Positions 21,693 through 58,868 of a DNA stretch of 64,000 bases are shown piece after piece (the stretch's first letter is position 1; the number at the start of each line of letters is the position of its first letter). A program made the translations under genes and the position numbers. The notes below the pieces were generated by a model. The model had not been told where the DNA came from. It saw nothing but the letters and a program-made list of their open reading frames with translations, and did no database searches. Origin of the DNA: a virus (taxonomy: Duplodnaviria; Caudoviricetes); IMG/VR virus record IMGVR_UViG_3300032227_000570, positions 1 through 64,000 of that record. One strand, given 5' to 3'.

Positions 21693-22985
21693 ATGGCGTA
21701 TGTCGTAACCCGAAACAAACGGCACACAGGCTATTACCGCAGAGGCGGTAAGGTCGTGAGTGCTGGAACTTACCCCACAAGGTCTAAAGCCTTGAACTCT
21801 GCTCTCATGGCAGAGGAAGGGGTTGTATCCGATAACCCTGAACTAATGACCACACTTGAAGCCTATGTAAAAGAGTGGCTGACCACCCGAACAGATGTTC
21901 GGGTCATAACAAGGAAAACTTACGCAACCGCCTTAAAGAAGTATGTCTTACCTTCTTTGGGAACTAAGCGGGTCACAAGCATTACTCGGAGAGATGTAAG
22001 ACAACTCTTTGAGAAGTTGCTTAATGAAGGCGTAAGCCCTGCCACCGTATCCCATGTCAAAGTTGCTTTGGGTTCTGCCTTCCGCCAACTGGTTGAAGAA
22101 GATGTCATAGCAGTCAATCCCACGCATGGGGTAAAGGTCAAGACTTCTAAAGCAGACCCAAAGCCTTCTTTAGAGCCTAATGACTTCAAGAAAATCGTGT
22201 CCCATCTGGAAACAGAAGGGGCAAGACTATTCGCTCAATTCCTAGTGACGAGTGGCTGCCGATTTGGAGAAGCCACAGAACTAAGGGTTAAAGACTTTAA
22301 CTTTCGTTCTAAAGAAGTTTATGTCAGACGAACCGTTAGTGATGTGGGTAAAGCCTTGAACAATGGTGAGCGTTTCTTAGTTGTATCTGCAACAAAGAAC
22401 GGACACAAGCGAACAGTTGTTATTAACGAAAGCCTTAATAACACCATAAAAGCGTATGTTCGGGATAGAAAATTGCTCGCTGATGACCTCTTGTTTGCCA
22501 AACAAAGGGTTGAGGCGTGTAAAATAAAGCCAGCAGGGAGTCTCAAAGAAAGGACTACAAAGCCCTACACCGTTGGAAGTAGAACATTCCAACACGCAAC
22601 TCCGTACTCGTACAATGTCGGTGGGTGTAGGTGTGACCTGTGTAAGCAAGCGGTCAGTAAGTACCGAAAACAATACAGAAAGGACAAACCGAAAGGCAGA
22701 GAAAGCCTTAGTCAAAGCCAAAGCCTTGACCAAAGCCATCTCAGTCGTGACAAGTGGAGAGCCATTTGGAACGAAGCCATAGAAAAGTCAGGTATTGGTT
22801 GGTATCCAAGAACGCATGACCTAAGACATGCCAACGCTACTCAACTCCTAAAGAGTGGGGTAGATGTGCATGAGGTCAAAGAGCGTTTGGGTCATCAGTC
22901 AATCACAACGACAGAGCGGTATCTACACCGTATCCGTCACCAGCAGTCAAAGGCAGCCGAGGTTGTCGGAGACTATTTGGAGTAG
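21693..22985 (+). CDS. tyrosine recombinase/integrase with inserted Cys/His module
   Basis: Catalytic R (GCRFGE), K (ATKNG), HDLRH, LGH, Y (TERY); SAM-like N-domain. Confidence 0.9.
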   Translation: MAYVVTRNKRHTGYYRRGGKVVSAGTYPTRSKALNSALMAEEGVVSDNPELMTTLEAYVKEWLTTRTDVRVITRKTYATALKKYVLPSLGTKRVTSITRRDVRQLFEKLLNEGVSPATVSHVKVALGSAFRQLVEEDVIAVNPTHGVKVKTSKADPKPSLEPNDFKKIVSHLETEGARLFAQFLVTSGCRFGEATELRVKDFNFRSKEVYVRRTVSDVGKALNNGERFLVVSATKNGHKRTVVINESLNNTIKAYVRDRKLLADDLLFAKQRVEACKIKPAGSLKERTTKPYTVGSRTFQHATPYSYNVGGCRCDLCKQAVSKYRKQYRKDKPKGRESLSQSQSLDQSHLSRDKWRAIWNEAIEKSGIGWYPRTHDLRHANATQLLKSGVDVHEVKERLGHQSITTTERYLHRIRHQQSKAAEVVGDYLE

Positions 22986-53779: not shown

Positions 53780-55990
53780 CTAGGAAGTTCCCTCTTCACC
53801 CTTGAAAGAGCGGACACGCCATTGAGTTCCCATAGGGACCCACTGGCTAAGGCTGTCTAGAAGACGAGCAATCTTGATAGTACGGCTCTGGTAAAAGTAG
53901 GAGTAGGAAGCGTGGGCAGTGCCTGACCAATAGACACCGCTTGCAGCAGGAAGAGAGCCGTCAAAGTAATCGGTGGCATTAAAACCAGCCTCAACCTGTG
54001 CAGCATCAACGTATACGCTCACTGATGAAGAAGACAGTGTTCCAGCAATATTGAGTGAAAGAGTGATGTTCCCTGTTGCTGACAAGTCTTCAGGTATGTA
54101 GAGACTTACTGTGTACCGTTGCCATGTTGAGGTTAGAGCCAGGGTTGATGAAGCATTGACCACGTTTGTAGAGTCATCATCGTCTGCAACTAAGGTCATA
54201 GTCAAGGTGGAGTTGGCAGATGCCTTCATGTAGATAGACGCTGTGTAGAAAGACCCTTGAGTCAACTTATAAGTATTGGGGTTTTTATTAGCGTTTGTAG
54301 ACAGTGAAAAGGCGGTTTGTCCAGATAGTCGTAAAGAATAGGTTCCAGGAAGTCCTGGTGGAATTGTTGTGTTGTCTCTTGTTGCTGAAGAGTTGGTAGT
54401 CCAATAAGTTGAGTTTGTTTCAAATGATGGGTTAGCAAGGATGTTTACTTTTCTTGGTTCCAAGAATACGTCTAATGCTCTTGCTTCATCGTAATTGGTA
54501 GCAGTTGCACTAGGTGCCATCTGTACACAGTCGATGTTATATGAGTTTTGTGTTCTGAACTTTAACCGAAACGCCGCATAAACCGCACCAGCAGGAGCGG
54601 TAGCAGTTTGCTCAATGCGTTGGTACACACCTGTAGTTCCGTATTCAGTTCCGATTACTGGAGACCCAATCTGTGCTCCAACTTCGTCATACCAATAAAT
54701 ACGTCCTTCAACGTTTCCATTTGAATCTGAAGCAGCGTAATAACTGAACTTGTATGCGGTACCTGCTGTAACTGGAATTCCTTTTGTTCGAGGAGAGTCT
54801 TTGCCAATAAACATGTTTGAGGTGTTTGTAACGCTTCCAGTTGCTGCAGTTGAGCCTAGGTTTGCACCACTGTTGGCGTATGTAAAGACTGTAGGGCTTA
54901 TAACAGTTGCAACGGTTGCACCACTTGCATTAAATGCAGCATCAACACCAGTAATGTTTATAACGTCCCCTTGGTCAAGACCGTGGGCAGCACTAAGGGT
55001 TAGTTTAGCAATGTTGTCGGTTCGTTCTTTAAAAGTTACTGTAGATGTAGTTGTAACAAAACGACCTGAGTAAGCCTTATCAATAGCGTTATTTCCTGTA
55101 GGTGCTGTCTTGTTACTTACAGAAGTTAGAGTTCCATGAGTTTTAGTCCAACGACCAATGCCGTTAGTAAAAGAAGAATCTTGAACATCTAAAAAGAGAT
55201 TTGGAGAAACAGTAACTGTCGGTGCATATCCTGTAAGTGCTTCGATATACCCAGAGATACCTAAGTAGGTTCCCTTGTTCTTGTATAGGTAAACGCTTTC
55301 TCTAATTAACTTCTTTTGATTCTTGTTAGGCAACCCTCTCTCTGGATAAAGACCTAGATTAAGTTGGTTAATACCTAAAAGTTGAGGAGGAGTAGTTCTT
55401 TTTCCATAAGAGGGTTTTAATAAAGAAGCATAGGTAAGGACCTCATCATAAGAAAATGAGAAGGGCTTTAAAAACTTATAAACAAAAGACTCCGTGTTTG
55501 GGATACCTGTAGGTGTCTGGTCATCTGTTGTATACACTTTTGGAAGCATCTCAAACAAGCGTGTTTGTGTTCCAAAGTCTTTTGGAACAACGGTTGTTGC
55601 AAAACCCGCTTGTTTCCAAAGGTTAGCACTTGTAAAAATCCACATGGTGTAATAGACGAACTGACCAGTTGGTGGGTAGTAATCATTATCAGTGTTTGAA
55701 TCTAAGAAGTTGTCTATACCATCATAAAAACGGTCACGTTCAACTGTTCCAGAAAGATTTGTTGTTGATGCTTGTTCCCAAAGAACAATTCCATCTTCTG
55801 CGGTCTCTGGGTAATTATCGTTGTTTCTTACCAAACGAATTTTTGTAAAATCACCTGCAGGTGGATTCCACAAAATCCAAACTTGGTTGTAATCCATGGC
55901 ATAAGCAGACATAGGTTCTGAAGACAGGACAAGTCGTGGAGCCTGACCATAGTAGGCTCCATGAAATATCGCACCCGTGTACTTTGCCAC
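53780..55990 (-). CDS. baseplate wedge/tail protein with carbohydrate-binding modules
   Basis: P2 I-like segment (YLYKNKGT..GI..YIEALTG), NPSFET CBM-like domains, HGL..GD.I.ITG beta module. Confidence 0.75.
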   Translation of the reverse strand: MAKYTGAIFHGAYYGQAPRLVLSSEPMSAYAMDYNQVWILWNPPAGDFTKIRLVRNNDNYPETAEDGIVLWEQASTTNLSGTVERDRFYDGIDNFLDSNTDNDYYPPTGQFVYYTMWIFTSANLWKQAGFATTVVPKDFGTQTRLFEMLPKVYTTDDQTPTGIPNTESFVYKFLKPFSFSYDEVLTYASLLKPSYGKRTTPPQLLGINQLNLGLYPERGLPNKNQKKLIRESVYLYKNKGTYLGISGYIEALTGYAPTVTVSPNLFLDVQDSSFTNGIGRWTKTHGTLTSVSNKTAPTGNNAIDKAYSGRFVTTTSTVTFKERTDNIAKLTLSAAHGLDQGDVINITGVDAAFNASGATVATVISPTVFTYANSGANLGSTAATGSVTNTSNMFIGKDSPRTKGIPVTAGTAYKFSYYAASDSNGNVEGRIYWYDEVGAQIGSPVIGTEYGTTGVYQRIEQTATAPAGAVYAAFRLKFRTQNSYNIDCVQMAPSATATNYDEARALDVFLEPRKVNILANPSFETNSTYWTTNSSATRDNTTIPPGLPGTYSLRLSGQTAFSLSTNANKNPNTYKLTQGSFYTASIYMKASANSTLTMTLVADDDDSTNVVNASSTLALTSTWQRYTVSLYIPEDLSATGNITLSLNIAGTLSSSSVSVYVDAAQVEAGFNATDYFDGSLPAASGVYWSGTAHASYSYFYQSRTIKIARLLDSLSQWVPMGTQWRVRSFKGEEGTS

Positions 55991-56449: not shown

Positions 56450-56680
56450 TTACTCACTAACTGGTGGTGTGAAGTTTGTGCCGTCCCATTTCCAACCAAC
56501 TTGTGGGTTGTTTTCTGCACCACGTGTAAACTCAAGGACTGTTGGGTTGCTTAAGAAAACAGAGGCACTACGCTCATCTGTTCCCATAACAAGGACAACT
56601 TCTCCATCAAGTACAAAGGCTAGGCTTTTTGTTATAGCAGGTTGTTCACGTTTAAATTGGCTATTTACTGGCTCACTCAT
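56450..56680 (-). CDS. small tail-fibre-associated protein
   Basis: FVLDGEVV...SNPTV...VGWKWDGTNF, tail assembly chaperone-like ending. Confidence 0.55.
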   Translation of the reverse strand: MSEPVNSQFKREQPAITKSLAFVLDGEVVLVMGTDERSASVFLSNPTVLEFTRGAENNPQVGWKWDGTNFTPPVSE

Positions 56681-56681
56681 T

Positions 56682-56957
56682 TTATTCTCCTTCGTTAGTG
56701 CTTACTGTAACAGGTCCCCACTTACCTACGGGGCATGAAGCGTGTGGCAATTCAGCCTTTTTAGTCATAAAGCAACCACATTTTTTACAAGTCTTTGTTG
56801 CTTGAATAAGGAACGGGCAGTTAAGGCAGTGGTTTGTGTATCTGTACTCGTAAGTCTCGTCGTCTACTCTCCCAATTTTTGGGTTGAGTAAATCCCAAGG
56901 ACGAACTGAATCGCCACCATTCTTTTCTTTCCAAATGTCCCAAGGTCTTTTTTCCAT
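56682..56957 (-). CDS. Cys-rich protein (DUF6171-like)
   Basis: CLNCP...CKKCGCFM..K..L..ASCPVGKW. Confidence 0.7.
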   Translation of the reverse strand: MEKRPWDIWKEKNGGDSVRPWDLLNPKIGRVDDETYEYRYTNHCLNCPFLIQATKTCKKCGCFMTKKAELPHASCPVGKWGPVTVSTNEGE

Positions 56958-56958
56958 T

Positions 56959-58191
56959 TTATTGTCCTAACGGTTTAACTATTAATGAGCCAATTGTACG
57001 ACCATCTTCAAAGTTACTTGGACGTGCTACAACCCCATACCCAGTTCCCGTTGCAAGAAATTCGGAGGTTGTGTATGTCCCTATTTGATTAGTATAAAGG
57101 CTGTCTGTGTAGGCATTGACAGTCATGTTTGTGCCATTAGCGGATATTTTTACCGCTGACCAACGGTCAGGAACTTGAACAGATTCAACAACCGAGAAGA
57201 CCCCATTAACCATTTTTACTATCTGTAAATAGAAGTAGTTTGTGTACGAAGTTCCTGTGGCTGATTGGATACACTCATTGTACGAACCCGCTTGGCAACA
57301 AGCGTACAACGGCACATTTGTATAGCCGTCAGGTGCACACTCGTACTCTGTTCCTATCTGCCCAAAAACTTCTCCACTAGGACAGTACTCAATATACGTC
57401 TCTTGTAAATCATAAACTGGTTCACAGGGATAGTCTTCCCATGTATTTGTGCAAACCTGTCTTGTTCCAGTTCCTGGAGTACAGACTCTAACCACACCTC
57501 GACCAATTTGGTATACCCACTCACAGTTTACTGTGTCATAAGGTTCGGTAACACAGTTTTGTACAATTCTACCTGATGGAGTTGGTGGTACACAGTCGAT
57601 TTCTACCCACTCGTCGTAATAAAGAAGTTCGTACCCACCAGGACAGGTAAAATCATATATTGGTGTAGTTGTTTCAGTATTTGGCGGGTCACAACGTAAG
57701 GTGTAATCATACGGCTCAGTACAAGCAGTAATGCAGTAACTTACTGGACGAGATTGAACGCAATAAGTATACGTTTGAGAAGTTTGGTTGTAATAGGGAA
57801 GAACACCCCACCAGTTATTTGCGTCAGTTACACGAATAGCAACTCCAGTTCCTGGAGTTAACTCGTTGGCTTGAAGGTCAAACTCTAAAAATCCAGCATC
57901 AATTGATGCCAATGGGTAATCTGATTTAGAACCAGTTGTTTTAGCAGCGTTAGAGTTAATTTGCCATTGGCTTCTTAGAATAGTCCAGCCTTGTCCTGAA
58001 TCTGCAGCACCTAAACCAGAGGTGGTATCGGCTCTATTAAAGAGGTCTTCAAGTTTGTCTGCCCAAAACTGTTTCCACTCCCCAGCAACTTTTACATAGC
58101 CAAACTTAGCCTTCTTCCAACCGCCATCTACTTTTGCAAATAGACCAGAAGCAGACTTAAAGTTGCCAGATACCTTAGAACCAATAGCCAT
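56959..58191 (-). CDS. tail fibre/receptor-binding protein with 16-Cys insertion
   Basis: KV.G.WK N-terminal anchor, DLFNRAD..LG beta-sandwich split by a Cys-rich segment. Confidence 0.7.
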   Translation of the reverse strand: MAIGSKVSGNFKSASGLFAKVDGGWKKAKFGYVKVAGEWKQFWADKLEDLFNRADTTSGLGAADSGQGWTILRSQWQINSNAAKTTGSKSDYPLASIDAGFLEFDLQANELTPGTGVAIRVTDANNWWGVLPYYNQTSQTYTYCVQSRPVSYCITACTEPYDYTLRCDPPNTETTTPIYDFTCPGGYELLYYDEWVEIDCVPPTPSGRIVQNCVTEPYDTVNCEWVYQIGRGVVRVCTPGTGTRQVCTNTWEDYPCEPVYDLQETYIEYCPSGEVFGQIGTEYECAPDGYTNVPLYACCQAGSYNECIQSATGTSYTNYFYLQIVKMVNGVFSVVESVQVPDRWSAVKISANGTNMTVNAYTDSLYTNQIGTYTTSEFLATGTGYGVVARPSNFEDGRTIGSLIVKPLGQ

Positions 58192-58199
58192 CTTATGTC

Positions 58200-58868
58200 C
58201 TAAGCAGTGTACTTAATCCAGATGTCTCCGTTATTACCACCAGTTGGGTCTGCTGTTGAGACCGTGATGTTACGAAGACGTGAGGTTAGTGCTTGGTCTC
58301 CCGTAAGAGTTCCACCAGTGATTTGGATGGTTGTATCAGCAGCAAGGACAGCAGGTGTTGAATCAGAGTCAACCCAAAGTGTTCCTGTTGGAAGTCCCAA
58401 AGCAGAAGCATCAGGTTGAGTTGACTGCATAAGGATAGGTTTAATAACTTGATTTTTATAAATAATCTGACCGTCTTTATCAACCTTAGTTAAAATGGCT
58501 CCTGTTGAATCTTTAAAGCGAATTAGGTCAGCAGTTTGGCTTGTAAAGCCCTGAATAGTTAGACCAACAACTGTTGAGTTAGAAGACTGAATTGTTTCCC
58601 CACCAGTAAAGTGCACATACTGATTGTGAACATCTCCTTTAATTCCTTTTTCAATGTTTGCTACACGAGCAGCCAAAGACGAAAAAGTGGTTGTTGTATC
58701 ATCAAAAGAGCCAACATATCCAGAAGATACGTGTGGCATTGAACCAACGTAGTTTTCAATAGCCATAACTTCGTCTTGAAGGCTGTTGATATGTTCTGCA
58801 ACAATGATTTGCGTATAATCGGTTTTATTTTGAAAGGGCTTGGTACCCGATGGGTAATCTGCTGCCAT
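58200..58868 (-). CDS. tail fibre protein
   Basis: AEHINSLQDEV.AIE, HNQY, GTLWVD, P.GG.NGDIWIKY. Confidence 0.7.
   Translation of the reverse strand: MAADYPSGTKPFQNKTDYTQIIVAEHINSLQDEVMAIENYVGSMPHVSSGYVGSFDDTTTTFSSLAARVANIEKGIKGDVHNQYVHFTGGETIQSSNSTVVGLTIQGFTSQTADLIRFKDSTGAILTKVDKDGQIIYKNQVIKPILMQSTQPDASALGLPTGTLWVDSDSTPAVLAADTTIQITGGTLTGDQALTSRLRNITVSTADPTGGNNGDIWIKYTA

Follow-up and report, generated by a model that had tools for sequence, protein, structure and literature searches.

A Probable Phage Receptor-Binding Protein with a Predicted Cysteine-Laddered Hairpin Stalk and a Putative Two-Gene Maturation Module

Introduction

The first 64,000 nucleotides of the tailed-virus record IMGVR_UViG_3300032227_000570 (the whole stretch analysed, referred to below as the window) carry, at positions 56959–58191 on the minus strand, a gene for a 410-residue tail protein with 16 cysteines crowded into a single segment. 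What do these cysteines build, and do the two small genes that follow on the same strand serve them? A first-pass annotation, made from the sequence alone, had seen in the segment one very long β-hairpin projecting from a β-sandwich and cross-linked by eight nested disulfides, and in the two small genes a possible redox or metal chaperone module for this needle. We propose that the gene encodes a lectin-like receptor-binding protein with a disulfide-laddered hairpin stalk, accompanied by a two-gene maturation module, and we put the probability of this reading at roughly 0.6. The first half of the earlier proposal would thus be retained, and the second half modified.

Results

Cysteine Map of the 410-Residue Protein

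The assignment of the gene to a receptor-binding protein of the distal tail or baseplate was based on the open reading frame (ORF), its neighbours and 71 homologues with kept synteny. Translation placed all 16 cysteines within positions 57271–57762 (minus strand, residues 144–307), as first annotated, at residues 144, 153, 157, 167, 183, 200, 213, 223, 237, 247, 256, 270, 285, 298, 299 and 307. The successive gaps of 8, 3, 9, 15, 16, 12, 9, 13, 9, 8, 13, 14, 12, 0 and 7 residues were also recovered, together with a segment start at CVQS, a final cysteine opening the motif CIQS and a richness in Thr, Tyr, Val and Glu. The 164 residues of the insert contain 19 Thr, 17 Tyr, 16 Cys, 16 Pro, 15 Val and 15 Glu, and the cysteine content was 9.8% compared to 0.84% genome-wide. 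The spacing, which the annotation had described as nearly mirrored around a central turn, was more symmetrical than that of shuffled gaps (p = 0.006 for the 410-residue protein). No signal peptide was detected on the protein and no Pfam family matched it. The best match of a profile search against the PDB had an E value of 0.59 only, and a tblastn search of 50,697 phage records gave no match.

Pairing of the Cysteines across the Family

Two sets of homologues were collected: a word-indexed search gave 71, and an exhaustive search gave 473 cluster representatives at E ≤ 0.001. Tests on close relatives used 43 aligned sequences, whereas in the wider tests no two representatives shared more than 50% identity. 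Every cysteine of the 43 close relatives was located inside the insert, and the count was even in all of them (14, 16, 18, 20, 22, 24, 26, 28 or 32), which corresponds to 7–16 predicted rungs. An even count was also observed in 111 of the 121 full-length-looking representatives with at least eight cysteines (binomial p = 1e-22), and the wider family reached up to 23 cysteine pairs. Because many of these even counts are not multiples of four (14, 18, 22, 26), they favour pairwise disulfides over metal sites made of four cysteines. The mirror in the gaps was significant against shuffled gaps in 43/43 close relatives (p ≤ 0.04, mostly below 0.005) and in 45 of 127 representatives, compared to an expectation of about six. 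The cysteine pattern is a property of the family and not a product of chance.

Two further observations bear on which cysteines are partners. The 14-cysteine relative P0020 lacked exactly C7 and C10 of the 16-cysteine pattern. These two are partners if the pairs are nested, whereas their loss would leave two orphans if the pairs were sequential. The presence and absence of cysteines was also compared between alignment columns. Reciprocal-best columns were 277/340, 281/341, 285/336, 292/332 and 299/320, with a near-constant sum of 617–624, and this constancy indicates an antiparallel register. The co-variation test was used instead of a direct test of nested versus sequential pairing on alignment columns, since the hypervariable columns align too poorly for the latter to be informative.

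Predicted Hairpin

An AlphaFold2 (AF2) model computed on the 43-sequence alignment had a mean predicted local distance difference test (pLDDT) score of 86.9, with values of 80–92 in the insert. According to DSSP, the first arm consists of strands 126–166, 172–182, 188–201 and 207–228, and the second arm of strands 232–253, 257–269, 275–286 and 291–328. The predicted tip turn at residues 229–231 (57499–57507, minus strand) falls inside the motif QIGRGV, where the central turn had been expected. The breaks of the two arms are opposed (167–171 to 287–290, 183–187 to 270–274 and 202–206 to 254–256) and adjoin Cys and Pro or Gly residues. In this model, the insert is a single two-stranded antiparallel ribbon emerging between two adjacent strands of a β-sandwich. 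The 16 cysteines are most likely arranged as eight nested cross-strand pairs, from C144–C307 at the base to C223–C237 near the tip, the predicted partners having residue numbers that sum to 451–460. In the distal unbroken segment, both C223 + C237 and C213 + C247 equal 460 and the two pairs are ten residues apart, an even spacing that suggests compatible cross-strand positions. A straight ribbon would form a stalk of up to roughly 20–28 nm, as estimated from the approximately 70–86 residues in each arm.

The long hairpin projecting from a β-sandwich is therefore consistent with the AF2 topology, the even parity, the mirror spacing, the antiparallel co-variation of the cysteines and the nature of the scaffold described below. 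Prediction of the product of 56959–58191 alone gave the extended hairpin. The two faces of the arms showed no consistent hydrophobic alternation. Kinship with β-pore-forming toxins was rejected, the top Foldseek matches in the PDB, to aerolysin and lysenin pores, having a template modelling (TM) score of only about 0.08 and a root-mean-square deviation (rmsd) above 44 Å.

Lectin-Like Scaffold and N-Terminus

Residues 45–143 and 308–410 together were compared to known structures with VIA-align. The highest score was obtained for the carbohydrate-binding module CBM66 (4b1m, Z 16.6, 153 residues aligned, rmsd 2.6), followed by the receptor-binding domain of TM4 gp23 (9n6a, Z 15.2), the Douge baseplate (8zdo, Z 14.7) and the CBM2 of the phage J-1 Dit protein (Z 12.9). 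Many legume-lectin and GH16 entries were matched as well. On the strength of the model, these residues form a ConA-like lectin/glucanase β-sandwich of the type used by phages for receptor binding. Its N-terminal half (residues 47–143, 57763–58053, minus strand) was delimited with VIA-align and BFVD, and its C-terminal half (residues 308–410, 56962–57270, minus strand) with AF2, VIA-align and a block of conserved motifs. The first BFVD matches were uncharacterised proteins of uncultured phages, followed by minor tail proteins of Gordonia, Arthrobacter and Rhodococcus phages; a protein of phage IME-SM1 with a similar sandwich and a weak E value stood at rank 40. One distant relative carries PF06439, which we take to be a ConA-like family.

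The N-terminal residues 1–46 (58054–58191, minus strand) contain a short β-hairpin repeat of the xVKVxGxWK type. The match to PHROG 25859/36019 was confined to this region, where AF2 placed strands at residues 18–44 with low-to-medium pLDDT. This part may dock the protein onto the baseplate or a fibre.

Variability of the Hairpin

Conservation was very uneven along the protein. The mean pairwise identity was 0.63 for residues 1–46, 0.59 for residues 47–143, 0.47 for residues 308–410 and 0.25 for the insert. The insert itself was not uniform, its base reaching 0.47–0.58 and its distal two-thirds only 0.15–0.26: the base of the hairpin is conserved and its distal part hypervariable. The phage genome contains no reverse transcriptase (RVT_1) and no second copy or template repeat of the insert DNA, which rules out that the protein is the target of a diversity-generating retroelement (DGR).

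Relatives without cysteines were also present. In P0135, P0149 and P0158, Tyr-rich low-complexity repeats of the SYY or PPSYYAG type were found at the insertion point (loci L110:4061–5239 and L111:5001–6134), and relatives with no insert also exist. The Tyr-rich repeats suggest an alternative, aromatic way to build a stalk, which could then make use of other staples than cysteines.

The Two Downstream Genes

The gene directly behind the adhesin gene (56682–56957, minus strand) encodes a 91-residue protein with the six cysteines C44, C47, C57, C60, C62 and C75, in agreement with the CxxC, CxxCxC and single C reported by the first-pass annotation. Its motif reads RPWDLLNP...CxxC...CKKCGCFM...CPxGKW. 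It matched DUF6171 (PF19668) at 27.2 bits for a cut-off of 27 (26.4 bits, just below, in a six-frame search) and phrog_13558 with an E value of 3e-12; precomputed Pfam assignments placed PF19668 on 37 of 82 homologues. The pattern CxxC-x9-CxxCxC-x12-CP was invariant in 46 aligned sequences. The AF2 model (pLDDT 81.5) consists of one helix and cysteine knuckles, for which Foldseek and VIA-align found no fold relative in the PDB. No NCBIfam model matched, and the core of about 50 residues resembled, below threshold, only the zinc ribbon of L32 and the RING-like domain of Nse1. The protein is probably a zinc-ribbon-like module.

The next gene (56450–56680, minus strand) encodes a 76-residue protein belonging to a family, here named s76, with the motif LAFvIDGeV...LS.P.v.E...kwDG, for which a custom hidden Markov model (HMM) was built. 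It matched no Pfam or PHROG family. The Atlas feature score against tail fibre assembly proteins (Caudo_TAP, PF02413/PF28596) was 0.77, within the chance range. Chaperones for tail fibre assembly are typically encoded behind an adhesin gene, as this protein is. With the custom HMM, the family was found to adjoin a DUF6171-like gene in 75 of 90 loci, and it also occurs beside cysteine-free relatives of the adhesin.

The gene order (adhesin, DUF6171-like, 76-residue protein) is kept in close relatives. In the otherwise different loci L009 and L010, a DUF6171-like gene is again located behind an adhesin of the family, with the 76-residue family on both sides in L009. A scan of IMG/VR with the DUF6171-like alignment returned more than 543 relatives, and the best 80 loci were clustered at about 80% identity into 48 lineages. 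A cysteine-rich ORF was present within 4 kb upstream of the DUF6171-like gene, on the same strand, in 37/43 lineages (23 of the 37 with a match to the scaffold HMM), compared to 1/46 lineages within 4 kb downstream. The cysteine counts of these upstream ORFs were even in 34 cases and odd in five. The conserved order, the upstream bias and the adjacency of the 76-residue family indicate that the three-gene module is real.

The co-occurrence of cysteine-rich inserts with DUF6171-like neighbours, suggested as a test by the first-pass annotation, is nevertheless not strict. DUF6171-like genes with no cysteine-rich neighbour were found in Stenotrophomonas phage IME-SM1 (where the gene sits with other small ones close to tRNAs and nrdA), in Synechococcus phage QB2, in L082/83 and L087, and in several lake contigs binned to metagenome-assembled genomes (MAGs). 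A degenerate copy with five cysteines, accompanied by two copies of the 76-residue family, follows the cysteine-free, Tyr-rich adhesin P0135. In the cultured cyanosiphophage S-CRES3 of Synechococcus (gp97–gp98, L003:4722–6237), the DUF6171-like domain is the C-terminus of a 158-residue protein and is followed by a 361-residue ORF with 24 cysteines. This ORF did not match the ConA-like scaffold HMM, and the locus lies just after two genes for ConA-like lectins. No relatives of the adhesin scaffold were found by sequence in IME-SM1, QB2, S-CRES3, L082 or L087.

Two loci deserve separate mention. On a contig assigned by binning to Saccharimonadales, a DUF6171-like gene is preceded, at a distance of about 1 kb, by a 754-residue ORF with 51 cysteines and a marginal scaffold match (L115:737–2998), the most cysteine-rich neighbour among the loci examined. 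In a contig of Helicobacter sp. 15-1451 (L130:3245–4111), a 289-residue cellular protein combines a membrane domain of the VTT/DedA type with a C-terminal DUF6171-like domain, a context unrelated to phage adhesins.

The phage genome contains no thioredoxin, glutaredoxin, Erv or DsbA gene (PF00085, PF00462, PF04777, PF01323) and no radical-SAM gene. The DUF6171-like protein, considered as a thiol-disulfide oxidoreductase, has neither a thioredoxin-like fold nor a flavin site, and radical-SAM cross-linking was rejected for want of such a gene in the genome.

Glycosyltransferase Genes in Related Loci

A different association emerged from other loci. In L051–53 and L069 (L051:4768–6207, L069:2190–3479), a PF11397 enzyme, a protein glycosyltransferase of the GlcNAc type, carries the DUF6171-like domain as a C-terminal fusion. 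The domain lies directly beside a PF11397 gene in L059, L063, L064, L065, L068, L082/83, L084 and L117; in L076 and L087 the two are about 1 kb apart. Genes resembling prolyl or Asp/Arg hydroxylases were present in the DUF6171-like modules of L009 and L110. In the distant phage of L009 (7789–9889), the module is followed by two paralogous 250-residue proteins, one of them with a weak DUF6065 match, and by a 2-oxoglutarate (2OG)-Fe(II) oxygenase (PF13640). It is possible that this oxygenase performs a hydroxylation step on the adhesin of that phage.

The genome under study contains neither a PF11397 enzyme nor a 2OG oxygenase. It does encode a GT2-TPR enzyme, outside the window at 74842–75888 on the minus strand (L136:745–1788), the C-terminal TPR region of which weakly matched the peptide-binding TPR of prolyl-4-hydroxylase. 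This enzyme is 59% identical to GT2-TPR genes located beside adhesins of the family in the otherwise different phages L010 and L111. The kinship hints at glycosylation of the virion or of the adhesin.

Phage Genome and Position of the Gene

The window is part of a complete virus record of 99,799 bp with direct terminal repeats. For DNA polymerase and baseplate J, the nearest isolates were the Streptomyces myophages BRock, Alone3, LuckySocke and GiJojo (30–37% identity); the phage is contractile-tailed and a distant relative of that group. This kinship hints at an actinobacterial host, which is probably a freshwater one, and the relatives of the adhesin come from lake metagenomes. No prophage relative of the adhesin was found among the 185,579 GTDB species genomes scanned, and the DUF6171 scan of GTDB genomes yielded mostly short MAG-binned lake contigs, by which no host was identified.

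All genes of the adhesin region are on the minus strand. Pfam and PHROG matches identified, upstream of the adhesin gene, the hub (GPD), a gp25-like protein, baseplate J, an OB-fold spike and a 222-residue fibre-like protein. The latter (58200–58868, minus strand) is cysteine-free, weakly matched a tail-fibre C-terminus and is syntenic across all close relatives. Downstream, the module continues with a 148-residue protein and ends with a 736-residue protein (53780–55990, minus strand) carrying a CBM_4_9 carbohydrate-binding domain and a single cysteine, probably another tail protein that binds the host or degrades glycans. The baseplate genes on one side and the CBM_4_9 gene on the other place the adhesin gene at the host-recognition site of a contractile-tailed phage. 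A tyrosine integrase gene was present at 21693–22985 of the window (plus strand), within this 100-kb myovirus genome with direct terminal repeats.

Discussion

Organisation of the Cysteines

The predicted ladder of nested disulfides rests on a combination of model and family-wide cysteine pattern, and several points weigh against it. The predicted TM score (pTM) of the model was only 0.56, and AF2 may itself favour the pairing of cysteines. Pairing C153 with C299 and C157 with C298 needs a three-residue bulge, so that the exact arrangement at the base is uncertain. Members of the superfamily with more than 30 cysteines show no global mirror, hence larger inserts may comprise more than one hairpin or adopt another topology, and a single hairpin is not a rule for the superfamily. 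Lastly, trimers are the usual form of phage receptor-binding proteins, so that three ribbons might be packed against one another. This last point leads to the structural alternative that we take most seriously, although we consider it somewhat unlikely, namely that the hairpins of several subunits form a multi-stranded β fibre or barrel, the disulfides only pre-organising each pair of arms. A lone two-stranded ribbon with about 85 residues per arm is unusual, and the shapes nearest to the model by Foldseek were protomers of pore forms with barrel-building hairpins, a likeness of shape only at the TM score given above. However, the arms lack an alternating hydrophobic face, and the hypervariability of the distal part is hard to square with tight contacts between subunits. 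Much less probable is a compact domain with local pairing, sequential or knotted as in EGF-like modules. Many cysteine-rich extracellular domains are built in this way and the loss of mirror above 30 cysteines would agree with it, but the mirror in all close relatives, the antiparallel co-variation, the joint loss of C7 and C10 and the extended AF2 hairpin all speak for nested pairs. The least probable of the alternatives is that the cysteines hold zinc or Fe-S clusters between the arms. Virions are assembled in a reducing cytoplasm, the neighbouring DUF6171-like gene looks metal-binding and the fibre tip of T4 gp37 does use metal ions. Against this, cysteines come and go one pair at a time (16 to 14 in P0020), counts of 14, 18, 22 and 26 are common where four-cysteine sites call for multiples of four, rungs separated by 8–16 residues are too distant to share one metal, and no His or Asp ligands accompany the cysteines.

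The role of the two small genes is a separate matter, on which two explanations compete with a general function in maturation. A dedicated redox or metal chaperone, forming or protecting the eight disulfides, as the first-pass annotation had it, now appears unlikely. The conserved three-gene arrangement does stand, and so does the preference of the DUF6171-like gene for a place directly behind cysteine-rich genes. It can be added that 14 of the 37 upstream cysteine-rich proteins lack the ConA-like scaffold, that the domain precedes the 24-cysteine protein in S-CRES3, that its six invariant cysteines include a CxxC and that the phage offers no other oxidoreductase candidate. The redox role itself is less well served by the loci with no cysteine-rich neighbour, by the degenerate copy behind P0135, by fusion or adjacency to PF11397 in at least 12 loci and by a core with weak zinc-ribbon matches in place of a thioredoxin fold or flavin site. 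Moreover, synteny among the 80 sampled loci, which are the closest relatives, makes the association look stronger than it is. The other explanation, possible although we are inclined to doubt it, considers the DUF6171-like protein as an accessory or docking module of glycosyltransferases that modify adhesins, the Thr- and Pro-rich hairpin (19 and 16 residues, respectively) being O-glycosylated. The PF11397 fusions and neighbours, the hydroxylase-like genes of L009 and L110 and the similarity of the phage's own GT2-TPR to adhesin-adjacent enzymes point in this direction. Yet the PF11397 and 2OG enzymes are missing from this genome, the sole glycosyltransferase is about 17 kb away, and a fusion indicates a functional link but not the nature of the role. 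From the gene neighbourhoods, we infer that the DUF6171-like and 76-residue proteins may serve the maturation or assembly of the adhesin, possibly by docking a substrate for glycosylation. The DUF6171-like gene would then probably help maturation in a general way, and not as a dedicated redox chaperone.

Proposed Model

We propose the following organisation for the receptor-binding protein with its laddered stalk. The conserved N-terminus would hold the sandwich on the baseplate, and the conserved base of the hairpin would anchor the stalk. Each cysteine pair adjoining a Pro/Gly break, the ribbon would be stapled segment by segment. The hypervariable distal two-thirds would meet the host surface and diversify in the conflict between host and phage; with no DGR, this diversification would proceed by ordinary mutation and recombination. 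As the phage encodes none of the thiol oxidoreductases or radical-SAM enzymes searched for, the hairpin most likely takes shape while still in the reducing cytoplasm, and the thiols that it brings together would oxidise later, on lysis into oxic water. The DUF6171-like and 76-residue proteins would act together as a conserved module by which adhesins of this class are matured or assembled. The links to O-GlcNAc transferases in relatives suggest that the module docks substrates for modification or assembly and does not oxidise thiols. A wider version of the model, which we advance tentatively and hold to be somewhat short of an even chance, would see in freshwater, probably actinobacterial, phages a tunable stalk, one two-stranded ribbon with up to 23 disulfide rungs, on a lectin-like adhesin, matured by a dedicated cytoplasmic module that comprises the 76-residue and the zinc-ribbon-like DUF6171 proteins and often also an O-GlcNAc transferase with hydroxylases.

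Comparison to Known Systems

TM4 gp23 (9n6a), the Douge baseplate (8zdo) and CBM66 (4b1m) share the β-sandwich with the adhesin (Z 14.7–16.6), and the actinophage proteins also share the position in the tail or baseplate module. They show no detectable sequence similarity to it, and none has a 165-residue cysteine-laddered hairpin between sandwich strands. Two-stranded antiparallel ribbons with nested, parallel cross-strand disulfide rungs are known in theta-defensins, tachyplesin, protegrin and arenicin. These are secreted host-defence peptides of 17–21 residues with two or three rungs, oxidised in the secretory pathway, whereas the insert described here has at least 160 residues and eight predicted rungs in a virion protein made in the cytoplasm; no homology is implied.

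Disulfides in phage tails have been shown experimentally in cyanophage Pam3 (PMC9942802), Agrobacterium phage Milano (PMC10811340) and Mycobacterium abscessus phage Jabs (PMC13419713), and involve host-adhesion parts in Pam3 and Jabs. These bonds link subunits or stabilise ordinary domains, and none is an intrachain ladder on a long hairpin. C-type-lectin receptor-binding proteins that are diversified by DGRs, among them the tentaclins (PMC10743442), likewise display a variable β-hairpin on a lectin-type domain. They differ from the present adhesin in their C-type lectin fold, in a short hairpin with no ladder and in diversification by a retroelement, for which neither reverse transcriptase nor template repeat was found here.

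We found no paper on DUF6171, and none that describes cystine ladders in phages or phage tail fibres rich in disulfides. By sequence comparison, the adhesin would belong to a large phage family for which we found no published description. The Pfam and PHROG families matched by the 91-residue neighbour, with their six conserved cysteines, have no assigned function. The link of DUF6171 to adhesin genes, to the 76-residue family and to PF11397 glycosyltransferases is new, and provides a first functional context for both small families, in adhesin maturation and protein glycosylation. The ladder, if true, would be to our knowledge the longest cross-strand disulfide ladder.

Such a ladder would mean that no more than a two-stranded ribbon is needed for a hypervariable probe of adjustable length on a phage adhesin. 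It would bear on how the abundant uncultured phages of freshwater reach their receptors across cell envelopes and on the assembly of disulfide-rich virion parts in the cytoplasm, and may be of use in protein engineering as a modular rigid spacer tolerating almost any sequence between its rungs. If the stalk and its maturation module are both as proposed, they would represent a new build for long, thin and fast-evolving host probes and a new pathway of virion modification.

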